DNA from: Escherichia coli
GTDB taxonomy: Bacteria; Pseudomonadota; Gammaproteobacteria; Enterobacterales; Enterobacteriaceae
Reading direction: 5' to 3' (one strand)
Assembly: GCF_044647545.1 (NCBI RefSeq)
Contig: NZ_CP172818.1
DNA length: 64,000 bases
Below the pieces are notes generated by a model, which did no database searches, was not told where the DNA came from, and worked only from the letters and a program-made list of their open reading frames with translations. The translations under genes were made by a program, and so were the position numbers. Shown here piece by piece: positions 2,986 to 54,932 of this stretch (position 1 is its first letter; the number at the start of each line of letters is the position of its first letter).

Positions 2986-3294
2986 GTGAAATATTTACTC
3001 ATTTTCTTACTGGTGTTAGCGATCTTCGTGATTTCGGTTACGTTAGGTGCGCAGAACGATCAACAGGTGACGTTTAATTATCTGTTAGCGCAAGGGGAGT
3101 ACCGTATTTCCACATTGCTGGCGGTATTGTTTGCTGCGGGGTTTGCTATCGGTTGGCTGATTTGCGGCCTTTTCTGGCTGCGAGTTCGTGTTTCCCTGGC
3201 GCGCGCTGAACGTAAAATAAAGCGACTGGAAAACCAGCTTTCACCCGCGACTGACGTGGCTGTAGCGCCGCACTCGTCTGCGTCGAAGGAATAA
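2986..3294 (+). CDS. lapA: LPS assembly protein LapA (YciS)
   Basis: 102-aa ORF with GTG start and two TM helices; immediately upstream of lapB. Confidence 0.9.
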   Translation: MKYLLIFLLVLAIFVISVTLGAQNDQQVTFNYLLAQGEYRISTLLAVLFAAGFAIGWLICGLFWLRVRVSLARAERKIKRLENQLSPATDVAVAPHSSASKE

Positions 3295-3300
3295 CTTTCT

Positions 3301-4470
3301 ATGCTGGAGTTGTTGTTTCTGCTTTTGCCTGTAGCCGCTGCCTATGGCTGGTATATGGGCCGCAGAAGTGCGCAACAAAACAAGCAAGATGAAGCCAACC
3401 GCTTGTCGCGTGATTACGTAGCGGGGGTTAACTTCCTGCTTAGTAATCAACAGGATAAAGCGGTAGACCTGTTTCTCGATATGCTTAAAGAGGATACAGG
3501 TACCGTTGAAGCCCACCTTACGCTCGGAAACCTGTTCCGTTCGCGTGGCGAAGTTGATCGCGCTATTCGCATCCATCAGACCCTAATGGAAAGCGCCTCG
3601 CTGACCTATGAACAGCGGCTTTTGGCGATTCAACAACTGGGGCGTGATTACATGGCTGCCGGGTTATACGACCGCGCGGAAGACATGTTCAATCAGCTGA
3701 CAGATGAAACTGACTTCCGCATTGGCGCGCTGCAACAGTTGCTACAAATCTACCAGGCTACCAGCGAGTGGCAGAAAGCAATTGATGTTGCCGAACGCCT
3801 GGTGAAGCTGGGTAAAGATAAACAGCGCGTCGAAATTGCCCATTTCTACTGTGAGTTAGCTCTGCAGCATATGGCCAGCGACGATCTCGATCGTGCCATG
3901 ACTTTGCTAAAAAAAGGTGCGGCGGCAGATAAAAACAGCGCCCGCGTATCCATCATGATGGGACGCGTGTTTATGGCGAAAGGAGAATACGCCAAAGCCG
4001 TCGAAAGTTTGCAACGTGTCATATCCCAGGACAGAGAACTGGTCAGCGAAACGCTGGAAATGCTGCAAACCTGCTACCAGCAGTTGGGTAAAACTGCCGA
4101 ATGGGCAGAGTTCCTGCAGCGCGCGGTGGAAGAGAACACCGGTGCCGATGCTGAACTGATGCTTGCGGACATCATCGAAGCGCGCGACGGTAGTGAGGCC
4201 GCACAGGTCTATATTACGCGCCAGCTTCAGCGTCATCCGACCATGCGTGTGTTCCATAAGTTAATGGATTACCACTTAAATGAAGCAGAAGAAGGGCGTG
4301 CCAAAGAGAGTCTGATGGTGCTGCGTGACATGGTTGGCGAGAAGGTGCGTAGTAAGCCTCGTTATCGCTGCCAGAAATGTGGTTTTACCGCATACACTCT
4401 CTACTGGCATTGTCCGTCTTGTCGGGCCTGGTCAACCATTAAACCGATTCGCGGTCTTGATGGCCTGTAA
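3301..4470 (+). CDS. lapB: LPS assembly protein LapB (YciM), TPR repeats plus C-terminal rubredoxin-like Cys4 motif
   Basis: 389-aa ORF; N-terminal TM segment, TPR-like repeats, C-terminal CQKCGF...CPSCRAW zinc-finger. Confidence 0.95.
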   Translation: MLELLFLLLPVAAAYGWYMGRRSAQQNKQDEANRLSRDYVAGVNFLLSNQQDKAVDLFLDMLKEDTGTVEAHLTLGNLFRSRGEVDRAIRIHQTLMESASLTYEQRLLAIQQLGRDYMAAGLYDRAEDMFNQLTDETDFRIGALQQLLQIYQATSEWQKAIDVAERLVKLGKDKQRVEIAHFYCELALQHMASDDLDRAMTLLKKGAAADKNSARVSIMMGRVFMAKGEYAKAVESLQRVISQDRELVSETLEMLQTCYQQLGKTAEWAEFLQRAVEENTGADAELMLADIIEARDGSEAAQVYITRQLQRHPTMRVFHKLMDYHLNEAEEGRAKESLMVLRDMVGEKVRSKPRYRCQKCGFTAYTLYWHCPSCRAWSTIKPIRGLDGL

Positions 4471-4661
4471 TTTTTAAAAAAATCCGACTTTAGTTACAAC
4501 ATACTAATTATTGATGTTCTATTGTGCTCCGGCACCGACGGCGCGGAAAAGCCTGCCAGAGGAGAAATCGCAACTGTTAATTTTTTATTTCCACGGGTAG
4601 AATGCTCGCCGTTTACCTGTTTCGCGCCACTTCCGGTGCCCATCATCAAGAAGGTCTGGTC

Positions 4662-5399
4662 ATGACGTTAACTGCTTCATCTTCTTCCCGCGCTGTTACG
4701 AATTCTCCTGTGGTTGTTGCCCTTGATTATCATAATCGTGATGCCGCGCTGGCCTTTGTCGACAAGATCGACCCACGCGATTGTCGTCTGAAAGTCGGCA
4801 AAGAGATGTTTACGCTGTTTGGACCTCAATTTGTACGCGAACTTCAACAGCGTGGTTTTGATATCTTCCTCGACCTGAAATTTCACGATATTCCCAACAC
4901 TGCAGCGCACGCTGTCGCTGCTGCAGCTGACTTAGGCGTGTGGATGGTGAATGTTCACGCCTCCGGTGGGGCGCGTATGATGACCGCAGCGCGTGAGGCA
5001 CTGGTTCCGTTTGGCAAAGATGCACCGCTTTTGATTGCTGTGACAGTATTGACCAGCATGGAAGCCAGCGACCTGGCCGATCTTGGCGTGACACTGTCAC
5101 CTGCAGATTATGCAGAACGTCTGGCGGCACTGACGCAAAAATGTGGCCTTGATGGTGTGGTGTGTTCTGCTCAGGAAGCTGTGCGCTTTAAACAGGTATT
5201 CGGTCAGGCGTTCAAACTGGTTACACCGGGCATTCGTCCGCAGGGGAGTGAAGCAGGTGACCAGCGCCGCATTATGACGCCAGAACAGGCGTTGGCGGCT
5301 GGTGTTGATTATATGGTGATTGGTCGCCCGGTAACGCAATCGGTAGATCCAGCGCAGACGCTGAAAGCGATCAACGCCTCTTTACAGCGGAGTGCATGA
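4662..5399 (+). CDS. pyrF: Orotidine-5'-phosphate decarboxylase
   Basis: ORF 4602..5399; start at internal ATG 4662 ([12 protein letters not shown]...) preceded by AAGAAGG SD; 245 aa. Confidence 0.95.
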
Positions 5400-7350: not shown

Positions 7351-7496
7351 CAAGGACATCCTTATAGCAAAAGTGGAAAAGGAATAATGCAAAAATTGCC
7401 GCTAAAAGAGAAGTGTTTAACAGCAACGGCTAATTATCATCCAGTAATACGATATATAATGACGGAATATATCGCTAAGTATATATATTCATCTAC

Positions 7497-9482
7497 TTAT
7501 GCGCGCTTCAGATAGCGTTTATACCAGCGTTCGAAGGCGACGGCGGGCATCGGTTTGGCAAACAAAAATCCTTGCCGCTCATTGATCCCGTTCTTGGTTA
7601 AAAAAGCATCTTCCTTTTTACTCTCCACACCTTCAGCGATCACCTGAAGATTCAATGCCTGTGCCACAGCAACGATCGCCCGGACCAGTGACTGCGAGAC
7701 AGGCTGTTTGTGAATATCCCGAACAAAAACCTGGTCAAGTTTGATGGCATCGATCGGAAAGCGCGCCAGTTGCGAAAGTGAAGAGTAGCCGGTACCAAAA
7801 TCGTCCAGATGCACTTGCGCACCTAGTTGGCTAAATTGTTGAATAACAGACAGTGCAAGTTCATCATTCTCAATCAGGCAGCTCTCCGTCAGTTCAACAT
7901 CAATAGGGCAGTATTCAAAATTGAGTTCCTGGAGAACCTGTTTCAGGGCGGTGAAAATGGTTTGATCGGCGAGCTGACGTGCAGAAATGTTTACCGCCAC
8001 TCGCAGGTTAATACCTTTATCCCGCCACTTTGCCACCTGGCGTACGACATCGAGAATCACCCAACGGCCTAAAGGCACAATTAGCCCTGACTCTTCGGCG
8101 TAGGAAATGAAGTCCAACGGTGGAATCAACCCACGTTCAGGTGACTGCCAACGTACTAGTGCTTCCAGACTGCGCACTTCGCCACGCCAGGTGATTTTCG
8201 GTTGATAGTGAATAACCAACTGATCGTTTTCCAGTGCTTTACGCAAGTTGGTATCCAGCCAGAGATATTCAAATACCCGCTGATTCATTTCTGGAGTAAA
8301 AACGCAAAATTGTCCTCGTCCGCCTTCCTTCGCTGTGTACATTGCTGTGTCGGCGTGACGAATAATAGCCGCGCTGTCCGAACCATGTTCGGGAGAGAGT
8401 GAAATACCCACTGAACAGCTGGTATAAACTTCAATTAAACCAATGCGGAAGGGGAGTCGTAAGCGGGTCAAAATTCGTGATGCCATTGCTTCCAGCGCGC
8501 TTTGTGAGGTATTGGATGCCAGTACCAGAAACTCATCGCCACCTGGACGCGCCAACACCTGATCATGTTCGAGACAGCTTAAAATGGCCAATGACACGTC
8601 GCGTAATAACTGGTCACCAAATAAATGCCCATAGGCGTCGTTGACCTTTTTAAAATTATCCAAATCAAGATACACAACCCCAACTTTATTGTTATCTGCC
8701 TGATTAATAGCGTGATCGATTAACTCCTGCATTGCGTTACGATTCGGCAGTCCGGTGATACTGTCGGTATTTGCCAGAATACGCAGTCGCTCCTGAGCGC
8801 GGCGCTCTTCGGTAATGTCGGTGCCGGAACAGATTAAAAAAATCTCGTTCTTGCCACTGCCGCTGTGGACAAATTTATTGCGAAACAGAAACAGCCGCTG
8901 GCCTTTACGTGTTGGTATCCACAGTTCGACTTCATATGCATTGCCGCTTCGAAAAAATACACGGTTATTGCGCCTGGATGCCGCAGCTTCACGACGGCTC
9001 ATAAACAGTTTAAACACGCTTTGGCCAATGACGTCGTGTTCTTTCAACCCAGTGTAATCTTCACATAACCGATTGAAGCGTTGGATATTCCCCCGGCTGT
9101 CGAGAATCACTATTGCGGAATGTGCTTCAGAAACTACCTGCTCAGCAAAGGAAAGCCCGTGTGATAAATCACGAGCAACTGCCGGTGTGTCATGCCATGC
9201 AGACGCGTTGCCAGCCCATTCCCGTTTATTGATTTTTCGTCCTACCAGATGCACAGAAAGATCGCTTTCATCGACGGTCAGACTCATCATCAGGCTGGAG
9301 GTGATGACCGTCATTTCCCTGATGCGAGCAGCCTGTTCGGCAGATAACTGCAAAGTACGATCAGGTTCTGTGGTTTCGGTGGTAGAAAAGCGCAAAACAT
9401 CGCTGCTTTCCGTTAACCGCCAGTATGGATTGTGCGATCCGAGAAAGTTGTACAACGTTGTGGACTCCCTAACGGTTTTCAT
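7497..9482 (-). CDS. pdeR: c-di-GMP phosphodiesterase PdeR (YciR/Gmr), PAS-GGDEF-EAL
   Basis: 661-aa ORF with PAS region, GGDEF domain (RPGGDEF) and EAL domain (QPKI..., DDFGTGYSSL). Confidence 0.95.
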   Translation of the reverse strand: MKTVRESTTLYNFLGSHNPYWRLTESSDVLRFSTTETTEPDRTLQLSAEQAARIREMTVITSSLMMSLTVDESDLSVHLVGRKINKREWAGNASAWHDTPAVARDLSHGLSFAEQVVSEAHSAIVILDSRGNIQRFNRLCEDYTGLKEHDVIGQSVFKLFMSRREAAASRRNNRVFFRSGNAYEVELWIPTRKGQRLFLFRNKFVHSGSGKNEIFLICSGTDITEERRAQERLRILANTDSITGLPNRNAMQELIDHAINQADNNKVGVVYLDLDNFKKVNDAYGHLFGDQLLRDVSLAILSCLEHDQVLARPGGDEFLVLASNTSQSALEAMASRILTRLRLPFRIGLIEVYTSCSVGISLSPEHGSDSAAIIRHADTAMYTAKEGGRGQFCVFTPEMNQRVFEYLWLDTNLRKALENDQLVIHYQPKITWRGEVRSLEALVRWQSPERGLIPPLDFISYAEESGLIVPLGRWVILDVVRQVAKWRDKGINLRVAVNISARQLADQTIFTALKQVLQELNFEYCPIDVELTESCLIENDELALSVIQQFSQLGAQVHLDDFGTGYSSLSQLARFPIDAIKLDQVFVRDIHKQPVSQSLVRAIVAVAQALNLQVIAEGVESKKEDAFLTKNGINERQGFLFAKPMPAVAFERWYKRYLKRA

Positions 9483-13767: not shown

Positions 13768-13932
13768 AGCTTTAATCCTTATTGTTGATGCTTGTTGTGC
13801 CTGAAAATCAGGCGATTCGTCGTTTTAGTAAACAGTACGAACAGATAAACGGTTATTATAATCAACCTGGCTGTGGGTGGCTATAGTTGCCAGGTCCGAC
13901 CGGAGCAGGCTGCGGCAGGGGGGGCGCTTTTC

Positions 13933-13971
13933 CCCTCACCCTAACCCTCTCCCCAGAGGGGCGAGGGGACC
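13933..13971. repeat. GC-rich palindromic repeat, copy L (TCACCCTAACCCTCTCCCCAGAGGGGCGAGGGG)
   Basis: Internal hairpin CCCTCT-CCCC-AGAGGG nested in CCCCTC...GAGGGG; an inverted, diverged copy lies at 14121..14150. Confidence 0.7.
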
Positions 13972-14047
13972 GTATTGTGCAAATATTGTTACCCCAGCAA
14001 CAAACAGGCTCATACAGCCCCTAACCCTTTCATGGCGATGGCTGGGA

Positions 14048-14086
14048 CGGTTCAGACCTTGCCGAATATTCTCCAGCACCGTCTCC
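14048..14086 (-). repeat. Degenerate duplicate of the last ~13 codons of ycjD
   Basis: 35/39 identical to 14154..14192 (the ycjD 3' end); the last 23 nt are exact. Confidence 0.75.
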
Positions 14087-14120
14087 ATGTTTTCACCACA
14101 ACAGCTATTCGGCTCGGTCT

Positions 14121-14150
14121 GCCCCCTCGCTCTTTCAGGGAGAGGGTGAC
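14121..14150. repeat. GC-rich palindromic repeat, copy R (inverted relative to copy L), overlapping the ycjD stop codon
   Basis: Reverse complement GTCACCCTCTCCCTGAAAGAGCGAGGGGGC shares the TCACCCT..CTCCC..AGAG..GCGAGGGG pattern with copy L; encodes the terminal SPSP-stop of YcjD. Confidence 0.7.
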
Positions 14151-14488
14151 CGGCGGTTCAGTTCCTGCAGAATATTCTCCAGCACCGTCTCCTCATTACA
14201 ATCAATCTCGTTATTCCAGAAACGCAGCACGGTCCAGCCCTGCGACTCAAGCCAGCTAGTGCGCCTGGAATCATAGGCAACTGCTAAATCATGCTGCCCA
14301 CCATCCAGCTCAACGACTACACGCGCCGAGCAGCAAGCAAAATCGAGAATGTAGCTCCCCACTGGATGTTGACGGCGAAATTTGAAATCACTAAAACGTC
14401 GGCTGCGAAGATATCGCCAGAGCTTTCGTTCCTGCAAAGTGAGATTGCGTCTTAAATCACGCGCATTTGATTTAATTTTATCTATCAC
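14135..14488 (-). CDS. ycjD: DUF559 protein YcjD (restriction-endonuclease-like fold), function unknown
   Basis: 117-aa ORF MIDKIKSNARDLRRNLTLQERKLWRYLR... Confidence 0.9.
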   Translation of the reverse strand: MIDKIKSNARDLRRNLTLQERKLWRYLRSRRFSDFKFRRQHPVGSYILDFACCSARVVVELDGGQHDLAVAYDSRRTSWLESQGWTVLRFWNNEIDCNEETVLENILQELNRRSPSP

Positions 14489-14555
14489 CTCATTCTGACA
14501 AGATTTAATCTTTTGTCAGAATGAGGTGAATAATCTGGAAGGAGGATTCAGAAGA

Positions 14556-15362
14556 TTAACGGTCCTTACGCCACGCATCCGCCGTCAATGCCTCGCCAAA
14601 ATGACCGGCGATCAGCCGTTTGGTGAGTTCATGCAGCGGCGATGCCAGCACATCCGCGGTGCTGCCTCGCTCGACAACCTCGCCCTGATGCATCACCAGC
14701 ACCTGGTCGCTAATGTGCTTCATCATTCCGATATGCTGGGTAACATAAATATACGAAATGCCCTGTTTTTCCTGTAACTCCAGCATCAGGTTAATCAACT
14801 GCGAACGCATCGACATATCCAGTGAGGCGAGGGCTTCATCGGCAATAATGACTTTTGGGCGCAATATCAGCGCGCGCGCCAGACCCAGACGCTGTTTTTG
14901 CCCGGGTGCCAACATATGCGGATAGTAACTGACGTGATCCGGTAGCAGCCCAACCATACGCATCGTTTCAATAATCTGTTTGCGACGCTGTTCCGGTTCC
15001 AGATCGGTGTTCAGACGCAGTGGAAAATCCAGAATTTGCGAGATACGTTGACGGGGATTCAACGAGGTCGAAGGATCCTGAAAAATCATGCGAATACGCT
15101 GACTGCGGAAGGAATAATCGCCAAAATGCAGCGGATGATCGTCAATCAATAACTCGCCGCTGGTAGGTTCTATCATTCCCGCCAGCATTTTTGCCAGCGT
15201 GGATTTACCCGAACCATTCTCGCCAATAATCGCCAGTGTCTGGCCTTCACGTAGCGTAAAGCTCAAGGGTTTTACCGCTTCTACGGTCTGACGACGAAAC
15301 CAGCCGGTCCGGTAGCGGAACGTTTTACTTAAATTACGCACTTCAAGTAGCGTTTCGATCAT
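14556..15362 (-). CDS. sapF: ABC transporter ATP-binding protein SapF
   Basis: 268-aa ORF with Walker A GENGSGKST and ABC signature LAPGQKQR. Confidence 0.95.
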   Translation of the reverse strand: MIETLLEVRNLSKTFRYRTGWFRRQTVEAVKPLSFTLREGQTLAIIGENGSGKSTLAKMLAGMIEPTSGELLIDDHPLHFGDYSFRSQRIRMIFQDPSTSLNPRQRISQILDFPLRLNTDLEPEQRRKQIIETMRMVGLLPDHVSYYPHMLAPGQKQRLGLARALILRPKVIIADEALASLDMSMRSQLINLMLELQEKQGISYIYVTQHIGMMKHISDQVLVMHQGEVVERGSTADVLASPLHELTKRLIAGHFGEALTADAWRKDR

Positions 15363-50806: not shown

Positions 50807-50841
50807 AATATGCCTGATGGTGCAACACCATCAGGCATATT
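50807..50841. terminator. Hairpin between convergent tyrR and tpx
   Basis: Perfect 16-bp inverted repeat AATATGCCTGATGGTG / CACCATCAGGCATATT with 3-nt loop. Confidence 0.65.
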
Positions 50842-51469: not shown

Positions 51470-52435
51470 ATGAGAACCGTTAAGGTATTTGAGGAGGCCT
51501 GGCCCTTACATACCCCGTTTGTGATTGCCCGGGGAAGTCGCAGTGAAGCGCGCGTGGTGGTGGTTGAACTGGAAGAAGATGGCGTCAAAGGTACGGGCGA
51601 ATGTACGCCTTATCCGCGCTATGGCGAAAGTGATGCCTCGGTAATGGCGCAAATTATGAGCGTCGTGCCGCAATTAGAGAAAGGGCTGACACGGGAGGAG
51701 TTGCAAAAAATCCTCCCTGCCGGCGCAGCACGTAATGCGCTGGATTGTGCATTGTGGGATCTGGCGGCGCGAAAACAGCAGCAATCGCTGGCTGATTTGA
51801 TCGGCATAACGCTTCCCGAGACAGTCACCACGGCACAGACGATAGTCATCGGTACGCCTGATCAGATGGCCAATAGTGCATCAACACTCTGGCAGGCAGG
51901 CGCGAAATTACTGAAAGTGAAGCTGGATAACCATCTTATCAGTGAGCGGATGGTGGCAATTCGCACAGCTGTGCCCGATGCGACGCTGATCGTTGATGCA
52001 AATGAATCCTGGCGTGCAGAAGGGTTGGCGGCGCGTTGCCAGCTATTGGCAGATTTAGGCGTTGCGATGCTTGAACAACCGCTTTCTGCGCAGGACGATG
52101 CGGCGCTGGAGAATTTTATTCATCCGTTACCGATTTGTGCTGATGAAAGTTGTCATACTCGTAGCAATCTGAAGGCGCTGAAAGGGCGCTATGAGATGGT
52201 TAACATTAAGCTTGATAAAACCGGTGGTCTGACGGAAGCGCTGGCGCTGGCGACTGAAGCGCGTGCACAAGGTTTTCGTCTGATGCTGGGCTGCATGTTG
52301 TGTACCTCTCGGGCCATTAGCGCCGCTTTACCGCTGGTGCCGCAGGTCAGTTTCGCCGATCTTGACGGACCGACCTGGCTGGCGGTAGATGTGGAACCGG
52401 CGCTTCAGTTCACAACGGGCGAATTGCATCTTTAG
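51470..52435 (+). CDS. ycjG: L-Ala-D/L-Glu epimerase YcjG (enolase superfamily)
   Basis: ORF 51428..52435; start at internal ATG after AAGGAG (MRTVKVFEEAW...) giving 321 aa. Confidence 0.93.
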   Translation: MRTVKVFEEAWPLHTPFVIARGSRSEARVVVVELEEDGVKGTGECTPYPRYGESDASVMAQIMSVVPQLEKGLTREELQKILPAGAARNALDCALWDLAARKQQQSLADLIGITLPETVTTAQTIVIGTPDQMANSASTLWQAGAKLLKVKLDNHLISERMVAIRTAVPDATLIVDANESWRAEGLAARCQLLADLGVAMLEQPLSAQDDAALENFIHPLPICADESCHTRSNLKALKGRYEMVNIKLDKTGGLTEALALATEARAQGFRLMLGCMLCTSRAISAALPLVPQVSFADLDGPTWLAVDVEPALQFTTGELHL

Positions 52436-53138
52436 GATGCCAGCGCAGCAAGTTTGCCATCGCAAAGAGATATTTTTCGCTGGCTTCGTCGGAGGAGATG
52501 GGCGGAAACTCTGCGGTGATGCAATGCAGGTTGAGATCCGCACACCAACTGCCGAAAGAGCCAGGCGTTTCATAACCGACGCTGGTTACCAGTGGCAATT
52601 CAAACGCCTGGGCCAGCCATTCACCTAATTCGCTGTGTCTGGGGTCTTCAATACAGGCCAGTGGATCGTGGAATGAGACCACCCAGGCAGGTTGAATGCG
52701 GTGTATAAGCTGGCACAGCGCCTGAGTTTCAGGTTCGGAGCCAGGTTTGTCACCTGTCAGTAAAACGACATCACGTTCTTCAGCGGTGCTGTTCCAGCGA
52801 TAAACTGTTTCACCTTCCTTCCAGTTCGCTGCCGGAAAGTTTCGGTTTAAATCCACACCATTAGCATTGGCCCGTAACCCTAACTGGCAGCCGTCAGGAT
52901 TCACACACAGCACCACATGATGGCGGCGCAAAGACGGTGTCAAAGTCCGCAGAGCACAGGAGAGCGTGACGATCGAAGAGTTTTCATCACCGTGAGTGCC
53001 AGCCAGAATCAAACCACTTTCGTGACTGGCGGCTGGGGCCGGAAACCAGATCAAAGGCGCGCCCAATAATGAACGTCCGTAATGTTCTGTACCGGGCGGA
53101 AATGCGCCGCGTTCGGCGCGTGGGCGAGTTACGGTCAT
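52410..53138 (-). CDS. mpaA: Murein peptide amidase A MpaA (zinc carboxypeptidase family)
   Basis: ORF 52410..53198; start at MTVTRPRAERGAF...; 242 aa; 3' end overlaps ycjG by 26 nt. Confidence 0.9.
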   Translation of the reverse strand: MTVTRPRAERGAFPPGTEHYGRSLLGAPLIWFPAPAASHESGLILAGTHGDENSSIVTLSCALRTLTPSLRRHHVVLCVNPDGCQLGLRANANGVDLNRNFPAANWKEGETVYRWNSTAEERDVVLLTGDKPGSEPETQALCQLIHRIQPAWVVSFHDPLACIEDPRHSELGEWLAQAFELPLVTSVGYETPGSFGSWCADLNLHCITAEFPPISSDEASEKYLFAMANLLRWHPKDAIRPL

Positions 53139-53318
53139 GATCGTCTCTGGTTCAGGAAGTATTACAGGCAGTGTTGTGCAAATTTTGCGGATTATCAAAT
53201 CCTTTTCTTCAACGCTATGTTATCGATCTTTTCACTTTTTTGCCGGAAGTTGTTTGCATTTCTTTAAGGCGAAACAAATAATTACGCATCAATTTTAATG
53301 TCGGTTAGAGGGAAACTT

Positions 53319-54932
53319 ATGAAGCACTCTGTTTCAGTCACGTGTTGTGCGCTGTTGGTCAGCAGCATTTCTCTTTCGTATGCTGCTGAAGTTCCGAGCG
53401 GCACAGTACTGGCAGAGAAGCAGGAGCTGGTGCGCCACATTAAAGATGAGCCTGCGTCGCTGGATCCCGCTAAAGCCGTGGGCCTGCCAGAGATTCAGGT
53501 CATTCGCGATCTGTTTGAAGGACTGGTGAATCAGAACGAGAAAGGGGAGATTGTCCCCGGCGTTGCGACTCAGTGGAAAAGTAATGACAACCGTATCTGG
53601 ACATTTACCCTGCGCGATAACGCAAAATGGGCGGATGGCACTCCGGTAACGGCGCAAGATTTTGTCTACAGCTGGCAACGTCTGGTGGACCCAAAAACAT
53701 TGTCGCCATTTGCATGGTTTGCCGCGCTGGCGGGAATCAACAACGCACAGGCGATTATTGATGGTAAAGCCACGCCTGACCAGCTTGGCGTCACCGCAGT
53801 TGATGCCCATACTTTGAAAATCCAGCTTGATAAACCGTTGCCGTGGTTTGTGAATTTAACCGCTAACTTTGCCTTCTTCCCGGTGCAAAAAGCCAACGTA
53901 GAAAGCAGTAAAGAGTGGACGAAACCCGGAAATCTGATCGGCAATGGCGCTTATGTTCTTAAAGAGCGCGTAGTCAATGAAAAACTGGTCGTAGTGCCGA
54001 ATACCCATTATTGGGATAACGCCAAAACGGTACTGCAAAAAGTGACCTTCCTGCCAATTAATCAGGAATCCGCAGCCACTAAGCGTTACCTCGCGGGGGA
54101 TATTGATATCACTGAATCCTTCCCGAAAAATATGTATCAGAAGCTGTTGAAGGATATTCCGGGGCAGGTTTATACGCCGCCGCAGCTCGGGACCTATTAT
54201 TATGCGTTTAACACGCAAAAAGGGCCGACGGCAGATCAGCGCGTTCGCCTGGCATTAAGTATGACGATAGATCGCCGCCTGATGACCGAAAAAGTATTAG
54301 GGACGGGCGAAAAGCCAGCGTGGCATTTTACACCAGATGTTACCGCGGGATTTACGCCGGAACCTTCGCCGTTTGAACAAATGAGTCAGGAAGAACTGAA
54401 TGCGCAGGCAAAAACTTTGTTGAGCGCAGCTGGTTATGGTCCGCAAAAACCGCTGAAGCTGACGCTTTTGTATAACACTTCAGAAAACCATCAAAAAATT
54501 GCGATTGCTGTAGCATCAATGTGGAAAAAGAACCTTGGCGTAGATGTTAAATTGCAAAATCAGGAATGGAAAACCTATATCGATAGCCGTAACACCGGCA
54601 ATTTTGATGTTATCCGCGCCTCGTGGGTAGGGGATTATAATGAACCCTCCACTTTCCTGACATTATTAACGTCAACGCATTCCGGGAATATTTCACGCTT
54701 TAACAATCCGGCATATGACAAAGTTCTGGCCCAGGCATCGACGGAAAATACCGTTAAAGCGCGTAATGCCGATTACAACGCGGCAGAAAAAATCCTCATG
54801 GAGCAAGCACCGATTGCACCAATTTATCAATATACCAATGGACGATTAATCAAGCCGTGGCTGAAAGGTTATCCCATTAATAACCCTGAAGATGTGGCGT
54901 ACAGTCGGACTATGTATATTGTGAAGCATTGA
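53319..54932 (+). CDS. mppA: Periplasmic murein tripeptide-binding protein MppA
   Basis: ORF 53298..54932; start at internal ATG after GAGGG (MKHSVSVTCCALLVSS...) giving 537 aa; signal peptide. Confidence 0.95.
   Translation: MKHSVSVTCCALLVSSISLSYAAEVPSGTVLAEKQELVRHIKDEPASLDPAKAVGLPEIQVIRDLFEGLVNQNEKGEIVPGVATQWKSNDNRIWTFTLRDNAKWADGTPVTAQDFVYSWQRLVDPKTLSPFAWFAALAGINNAQAIIDGKATPDQLGVTAVDAHTLKIQLDKPLPWFVNLTANFAFFPVQKANVESSKEWTKPGNLIGNGAYVLKERVVNEKLVVVPNTHYWDNAKTVLQKVTFLPINQESAATKRYLAGDIDITESFPKNMYQKLLKDIPGQVYTPPQLGTYYYAFNTQKGPTADQRVRLALSMTIDRRLMTEKVLGTGEKPAWHFTPDVTAGFTPEPSPFEQMSQEELNAQAKTLLSAAGYGPQKPLKLTLLYNTSENHQKIAIAVASMWKKNLGVDVKLQNQEWKTYIDSRNTGNFDVIRASWVGDYNEPSTFLTLLTSTHSGNISRFNNPAYDKVLAQASTENTVKARNADYNAAEKILMEQAPIAPIYQYTNGRLIKPWLKGYPINNPEDVAYSRTMYIVKH

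Follow-up and report, generated by a model that had tools for sequence, protein, structure and literature searches.

Convergent overlaps make up 7% (3,035/42,055) of the well-characterised gene overlaps in 338 genomes, and they typically arise when a 3' end is extended following the loss of a stop codon or a frameshift (Palleja et al. 2008, PMC2478687; Rogozin et al. 2002, as cited in PMC2478687). A second closely related class is that of the convergent excludons, a concept that stems from Listeria and for which a map of E. coli is available (ExcludonFinder, Sanmartin et al., NAR 2025, PMC12288877); here, the transcripts of opposite-strand neighbours overlap, and one end lies within the partner unit. 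A third is the bidirectional terminator, exemplified by the spacer between tyrR and tpx, which serves a convergent pair that needs 3' ends on both strands.

The ycjG-mpaA pair of E. coli can be set beside each of these. As in the overlaps formed by 3'-end extension, two genuine coding sequences lie on opposite strands with each stop within the other, the overlap is short, its origin appears to be a 3' frameshift in one gene, the added stretch of tail lacks conservation, and only close relatives share the exact form. The event at ycjG-mpaA would, however, have lengthened an existing 10-nt overlap rather than created one; otherwise, there is no substantive difference. With the convergent excludons, whose published E. 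coli list names the pair, it shares the overlapping transcripts and a transcript end within the partner unit, but its products cooperate in one pathway and are not opposed, and reciprocal expression and RNase III processing would be predictions for it. With the tyrR-tpx terminator it shares the convergent setting, but spacer, stable hairpin, and U-tracts are all missing at the ycjG-mpaA junction, and termination is apparently Rho dependent and takes place inside the partner gene. Both overlaps are already known, that of the coding sequences from the standard annotation of E. coli, which has long included it, and that of the transcripts from a published catalogue; the new increment presented here is a comparative anatomy of the junction, namely, its variable length, the single-base origin proposed for the 26-nt form, and the contrast with a terminator-bearing neighbour.

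The coding overlap and its surroundings

The window analysed here is a stretch of 64,000 nucleotides of the E. coli chromosome (contig NZ_CP172818.1 of assembly GCF_044647545.1), in which the genes at the locus follow the order tyrR-tpx-ycjG-mpaA-mppA. The coordinates of the features discussed are given in Table 1.

Table 1. Features at and near the ycjG-mpaA junction, in window coordinates
Feature	Position	Strand	Remarks
ycjG CDS (L-Ala-D/L-Glu epimerase, 321 aa)	51470..52435	+	Stop TAG 52433-52435; 51470 is the annotated start; from the ORF list and RefSeq
mpaA CDS (murein tripeptide amidase, 242 aa)	52410..53138	-	Stop TGA, the reverse complement of tca 52410-52412
Convergent coding overlap, 26 nt including both stops	52410..52435	both	Read from the sequence
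ycjG stop TAG	52433..52435	+	Putative site of a lineage-specific 1-nt deletion, TGAG to TAG
6-bp palindrome GCATCT-tta-GGATGC	52426..52440	both	Centred on the ycjG stop; U-tract absent on either strand
tyrR-tpx control, perfect 16-bp palindrome AATATGCCTGATGGTG caa CACCATCAGGCATATT	50807..50841	both	Fills the 43-nt convergent spacer; folds with z -7.4 on both strands
First stretch of plus-strand RNA past ycjG with C>G	52750..52950	+	Inside antisense mpaA; GC skew -0.16 to -0.22

According to the sequence and the list of open reading frames, ycjG ends in ...GAA TTG CAT CTT TAG and mpaA, on the minus strand, in ...CCT AAA GAT GCA ATT CGC CCG TTG TGA. The 26 shared nucleotides encode (F)TTGELHL-stop in YcjG and (P)KDAIRPL-stop in MpaA, and the register is such that the second codon positions of mpaA lie opposite the third positions of ycjG. 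The sequence-only reading had proposed that the last 26 nt of the two genes occupy the same DNA and that both genes act in murein-peptide recycling, and both proposals are borne out. RefSeq places the stops identically (TAG at 52433-52435 and TGA at 52412-52410). YcjG matches the NCBIfam equivalog PRK15129 over its entire length (1-321 of 321; E 3e-203) and PDB entry 1jpd with residues 1-321 covered, while MpaA matches the equivalog PRK10602 (1-236 of 237) and PDB entries 5hxd and 4axv. In the pathway, MpaA frees mDAP from the murein tripeptide, and YcjG then epimerises the L-Ala-D-Glu product (PMC9928106).

Mis-called 3' ends caused by frameshifts or sequencing errors are a known source of annotated convergent overlaps (PMC2478687), and the crystallised E. 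coli MpaA chain has 237 aa, 5 fewer than the ORF, which could be taken to mean that one of the genes truly ends earlier and that there is no overlap at all. However, both stops are read straight from the sequence and are unambiguous, neither ycjG nor mpaA has an earlier in-frame stop, and a 237-aa MpaA would need processing, not an earlier stop. Alternative stop or start assignments that might have removed the overlap are thereby rejected, the choice of start being irrelevant to an overlap of 3' ends. The same 26-nt overlap is present in the RefSeq annotation of a K-12-like strain and of the nearest strain (ycjG 3171-4136 and mpaA 4111-4839 in both loci). Furthermore, an 80-nt junction probe has an ungapped match in 5413 of 5426 complete E. 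coli genomes and, among the matches listed, always falls under both gene annotations, and the 26-nt form is also found in E. albertii and Citrobacter. An artefact is hence effectively refuted, with a negligible chance of being correct: these are two real opposite-strand coding sequences, each with its stop inside the frame of the partner, and a sequencing or annotation error does not account for the overlap.

Convergent coding overlap is a minority arrangement, yet it is not rare. Of the 13 convergent pairs in the 100 kb annotated around the locus, 4 overlap (ymiD/pdeR by 19 nt, ycjG/mpaA by 26 nt, sieB/ydaF by 4 nt, and a hypothetical pair by 32 nt), and the remaining pairs have spacers of 20 to 128 nt. 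The ymiD/pdeR overlap is the second convergent overlap in the window, at 7497-7515 (ymiD 7387-7515, plus strand; pdeR 7497-9482, minus strand); this pair, too, is among the published excludons, and the 3 noncontiguous operons reported with them include pdeR-ymiD-yciZ (PMC12288877).

In K-12, both ycjG and mpaA are listed in the PgrR regulon (PMC5934670), and PgrR is reported to diminish mpaA expression in nutrient-rich conditions (PMC9928106). The source strain of the window has no PgrR repressor gene at the mpaA-mppA locus, where mpaA is directly divergent from mppA (intergenic region 53139-53320). The K-12-like locus (L001, 4966-7131) has an extra block at this position that comprises pgrR, ycjY, and a pseudogene for an NAD-dependent dehydratase. 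The remaining Enterobacterales loci that were examined carry mppA upstream of mpaA and on the other strand; the distance is mostly ~100 to 320 nt and is ~540 to 760 nt in Serratia (L022) and Yersinia aldovae (L031). A close homologue of pgrR or ycjY was found near mpaA in none of them. Because these loci have mppA upstream of mpaA without pgrR or ycjY, the K-12 ycjY-pgrR block looks like an insertion. Elsewhere in the window, a block of ~7.9 kb that lies between fabI and sapF in the nearest RefSeq strain, FDAARGOS_497 (L083, 6658-14553), and encodes a TetR regulator, an RND efflux system, and an MFS transporter is absent; the window has instead ~0.67 kb at 13891-14556 with a 117-aa ORF (14135-14488, minus strand).

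Overlap length among species and the MpaA tail

For a survey across species, one genome per species was scanned with an MpaA alignment, and both genes and their first in-frame stops were located at each locus. In all 29 non-E. coli species in which a ycjG homologue adjoins mpaA, the two genes are convergent, and their coding sequences overlap in 24 of them, by 4, 10, 19, 21, 26, or 29 nt. The 10-nt overlap is found at 11 loci (Enterobacter, Pseudocitrobacter, Kluyvera, Superficieibacter, Pseudescherichia, and others), the 26-nt overlap in five species (E. albertii, two Citrobacter, and two Pantoea), the 4-nt overlap in five (Pluralibacter, Serratia, two Yersinia, and Mangrovibacter), and the 19-, 21-, and 29-nt overlaps at one locus each. 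In the remaining five of the 29 species, the genes are separated by 3, 9, 36, 72, or 160 nt, and Microbulbifer (36 nt) and Vibrio (160 nt), which are the most distantly related, are among those with the widest gaps. Conservation of the overlap in other species, which had been suggested as a check, was therefore seen in part: the convergent orientation is constant and overlap is the rule, but the length varies and five species have a gap. A conserved length of 26 nt is ruled out by this variation. The conserved trait is thus a tight, spacer-less tail-to-tail junction and not the 26-nt overlap.

Outside Pantoea, 16 species overlap by 26 or 10 nt, and in these the variation in length lies on the MpaA side. 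Their YcjG sequences align up to residue 321 and are not extended before the stop, and the C-terminus is conserved as ...P-A-L-x-F-T-T-G-x-L-H-L, with the same end residue. MpaA homologues, on the other hand, are invariant up to ...LLRW and then carry 0 to 15 unconserved residues, giving totals of 233 to 245 aa (alignment of 20 homologues). Consistent with this, the NCBIfam profile of MpaA stops at residue 236, and the Vibrio structure aligns only to residue 235. We also considered whether the MpaA tail is under constraint, and this was ruled out by the alignment, which has no conservation past LLRW. The tail is thus an antisense translation of the last ycjG codons up to the first in-frame stop, and it is because it is unconstrained and runs to the first antisense stop that the length of the overlap drifts among species.

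An alignment of the junction DNA (A2, 13 species) separates a 26-nt group, which reads CTT TAG GAT GCC AGC, from a 10-nt group, which reads CTT TGA GGn TGC CAG C. From this, we infer that the common 10-nt form gave rise to the 26-nt one of Escherichia and Citrobacter through the loss of one base, by which the ycjG stop would have changed from TGAG to TAG. The effect of such a deletion is one-sided: YcjG stays at 321 aa, and the MpaA tail changes from ...LRWQPQR-stop (237 aa) to ...LRWHPKDAIRPL-stop (242 aa), the frame shift placing the MpaA stop 16 nt deeper in ycjG. A single-base difference between the window and K-12 (A/G at 52414) is similarly silent in ycjG (ACA/ACG, Thr) but replaces the Leu at the end of MpaA by Ser; this polymorphism again marks the MpaA tail as a passenger.

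Termination at the junction and the extent of the transcripts

A consensus terminator scan and four folds covering both strands revealed no intrinsic terminator at or near the ycjG-mpaA junction. The RNA folds of the junction, with z scores of -1.4, +0.9, and -0.25 over the two strands, are no more stable than shuffles, and no stable GC-rich hairpin flanked by A/T tracts, as a bidirectional intrinsic terminator would have, lies between the stops. The 6-bp palindrome centred on the ycjG stop was considered as an intrinsic terminator and ruled out, as no U-tract follows it on either strand, and a structured stretch of the minus strand at 52300-52420 (z -2.4) was rejected for the same reason. The convergent tyrR-tpx pair, which served as a control, differs in this respect. 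Its palindrome (Table 1), although missed by the simple terminator scan, is a textbook bidirectional terminator, and in the same loci tyrR and tpx never overlap, their spacer being 34 to 84 nt in 20 of the 24 other species in which both could be located and more than 400 nt in the remaining 4.

Because the ycjG-mpaA junction is without a terminator, the ycjG and mpaA mRNAs must each enter the partner gene. For ycjG, a Rho-dependent termination region has been mapped at MG1655 position 1390286 on the plus strand, antisense to mpaA (Adams et al., eLife 2021, PMC7815308, supplementary file 2). The reads upstream and downstream of it number 47/14 without BCM (bicyclomycin) and 58/68 with BCM, giving a Rho score of 3.9 and a p value of 7e-5 on modest read counts. 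MG1655 coordinates were anchored by matching the published tpx and mpaA 3'-end sequences to the K-12-like record, which sets ycjG at 1388930-1389895. The Rho peak then maps ~391 nt past the ycjG stop, at about window position 52826, a position that is approximate because the published method compares 800-nt windows. The mapped region coincides with the first C-rich, G-poor stretch of the plus-strand RNA beyond ycjG (Table 1).

On the opposite strand, the tables of Adams et al. contain no 3' end and no Rho region antisense to ycjG (PMC7815308). The minus-strand RNA past the mpaA stop is C rich and G poor at 52000-52300 (plus-strand GC skew of +0.14 to +0.25), which makes this stretch a plausible candidate Rho loading region for mpaA read-through; the published Rho tables list no Rho site there (PMC7815308). 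At the other end of mpaA, Term-seq in the same work places a 3' end, of abundance value 27317, at MG1655 1390559 on the minus strand, 39 nt into the gene. It is preceded by a hairpin, GCGCCG-aacg-CGGCGC, and AUUUC, which are also present in the window (53099-53119, minus strand, 39 nt after the mpaA ATG), and this hairpin may be a site of premature termination or attenuation in the mpaA leader and early ORF.

In the excludon catalogue for MG1655, ycjG-mpaA is one of the 165 convergent excludons that were detected in 50% or more of the RNA-seq samples, tpx-ycjG is among 16 divergent excludons, and mpaA-ycjG-tpx is one of only 3 noncontiguous operons (PMC12288877). According to the authors, validation by p19 capture of double-stranded RNA is not feasible for convergent excludons. 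The expectation that full-length transcripts of the two genes are antisense to each other at their 3' ends has thus held up: the genes share 26 nt, the pair is listed as an excludon, and a Rho region lies antisense to mpaA. By these published data, the two transcripts do overlap, and with no terminator at the junction they do so over hundreds of nucleotides, the 26 shared coding bases being the guaranteed minimum only.

The listing as a noncontiguous operon raises the possibility that mpaA transcripts cross the whole of ycjG in antisense into tpx, which would join mpaA and tpx in one transcript and silence ycjG from both ends. The layout at the locus is that of such an operon, with tpx (minus) and mpaA (minus) flanking ycjG (plus), and this order is kept in Enterobacterales; nearly all of the Enterobacterales loci examined have mpaA and tpx on one strand, and in two of the loci tpx was not found. 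In two Pectobacterium species that have no ycjG (L024 and L027, ~4194-4779), tpx is co-directional with mpaA and follows 79 nt after it. That the published tables give neither a 3' end of mpaA nor a Rho region on the strand antisense to ycjG would also be in line with transcripts that continue into tpx; however, the missing 3' ends may reflect low expression of mpaA in rich medium, given the effect of PgrR (PMC9928106). Moreover, such a transcript would include ~1 kb of untranslated RNA past the mpaA stop, with more C than G at 52000-52300 of the minus strand, and RNA of this kind is the usual substrate of Rho. We therefore consider read-through from mpaA into tpx improbable as an account of the junction.

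Passive and regulatory readings of the junction

Our preferred explanation, which we hold to be probable, is that of a real but passive overlap between two genes that form a tightly packed convergent pair without spacer or intrinsic terminator, and this packing is conserved across Enterobacterales. According to this explanation, the C-terminus of YcjG (...FTTGxLHL) would be under constraint at the protein level, whereas the catalytic domain of MpaA would end at ...LLRW, and the remainder would be an unconstrained tail formed by the antisense of the 3' codons of ycjG. The junction would have lost its spacer or would never have had one. The loss of a base in the ycjG stop would then have left YcjG unchanged and brought the MpaA tail into frame with a stop 16 nt further on, and the ycjG transcript would end by Rho termination ~0.4 kb inside antisense mpaA. 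As such, the 26 shared coding nucleotides are not the operative feature, because the transcript overlap measures hundreds of nucleotides, the length of the coding overlap is unconserved, and the mpaA codons within it belong to the unconserved tail. It had been suggested that the antisense arrangement could couple the expression of the two genes. An effect on expression, through transcriptional interference or cleavage of the duplex, is possible, but we judge that it would most likely be weak or incidental.

One observation speaks against passivity. Overlap or near abutment has been kept in 24 of 29 species while tyrR and tpx never overlap, and this could point to selection for a terminator-less junction and not to inertia. 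It is conceivable that the junction is kept without a terminator because overlapping 3' transcription, by RNA polymerase collision and/or cleavage of the duplex by RNase III, tunes or balances the expression of ycjG and mpaA. Several of the findings described above agree with this model: both ycjG-mpaA and tpx-ycjG are catalogued as excludons, the junction is tight where that of tyrR-tpx is always spaced, the missing intrinsic terminator makes overlap obligatory whenever both genes are transcribed, and Rho-dependent read-through into antisense mpaA has been reported (PMC7815308). Additionally, ExcludonFinder treats such pairs as regulatory, and excludon pairs generally have higher synteny (PMC12288877). 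However, the listing is an entry in a coverage-based catalogue, and we found no gene-specific experiment in the literature. The length of the overlap is unconserved, with five species gapped by up to 160 nt. Furthermore, MpaA and YcjG are consecutive enzymes of one pathway (PMC9928106) and share the PgrR regulon in K-12 (PMC5934670), so that mutually exclusive expression would be counterproductive; the mutual exclusion that the excludon model predicts has no evident benefit for a cooperating pair. Genes that overlap are also hard to separate and can be retained in that state without selection, and overlapping pairs are described in the literature as generally more conserved. Because overlaps are intrinsically hard to undo, the retention of the tight junction is by itself weak evidence. 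On balance, we regard selection for expression tuning as unlikely. A more specific form of this model, in which the conserved terminator-less junction (24/29 loci) is a selected device and antisense 3' transcription, possibly including read-through from mpaA to tpx, sets the ratio of the two consecutive enzymes or gates one against the other, seems to us doubtful indeed.

In summary, the overlap matters little as it stands. If the antisense overlap did balance MpaA and YcjG, this would be a rare excludon that links cooperating and not opposing functions, and it would be of moderate interest for the study of bacterial transcription and peptidoglycan recycling. As it is, the locus provides a clean, well-annotated example of how a convergent overlap can drift in length when a C-terminal tail is unconstrained, with the deletion of one base taking it from 10 to 26 nt, and likewise a clean example of a terminator-less convergent pair that relies on Rho inside the partner gene.
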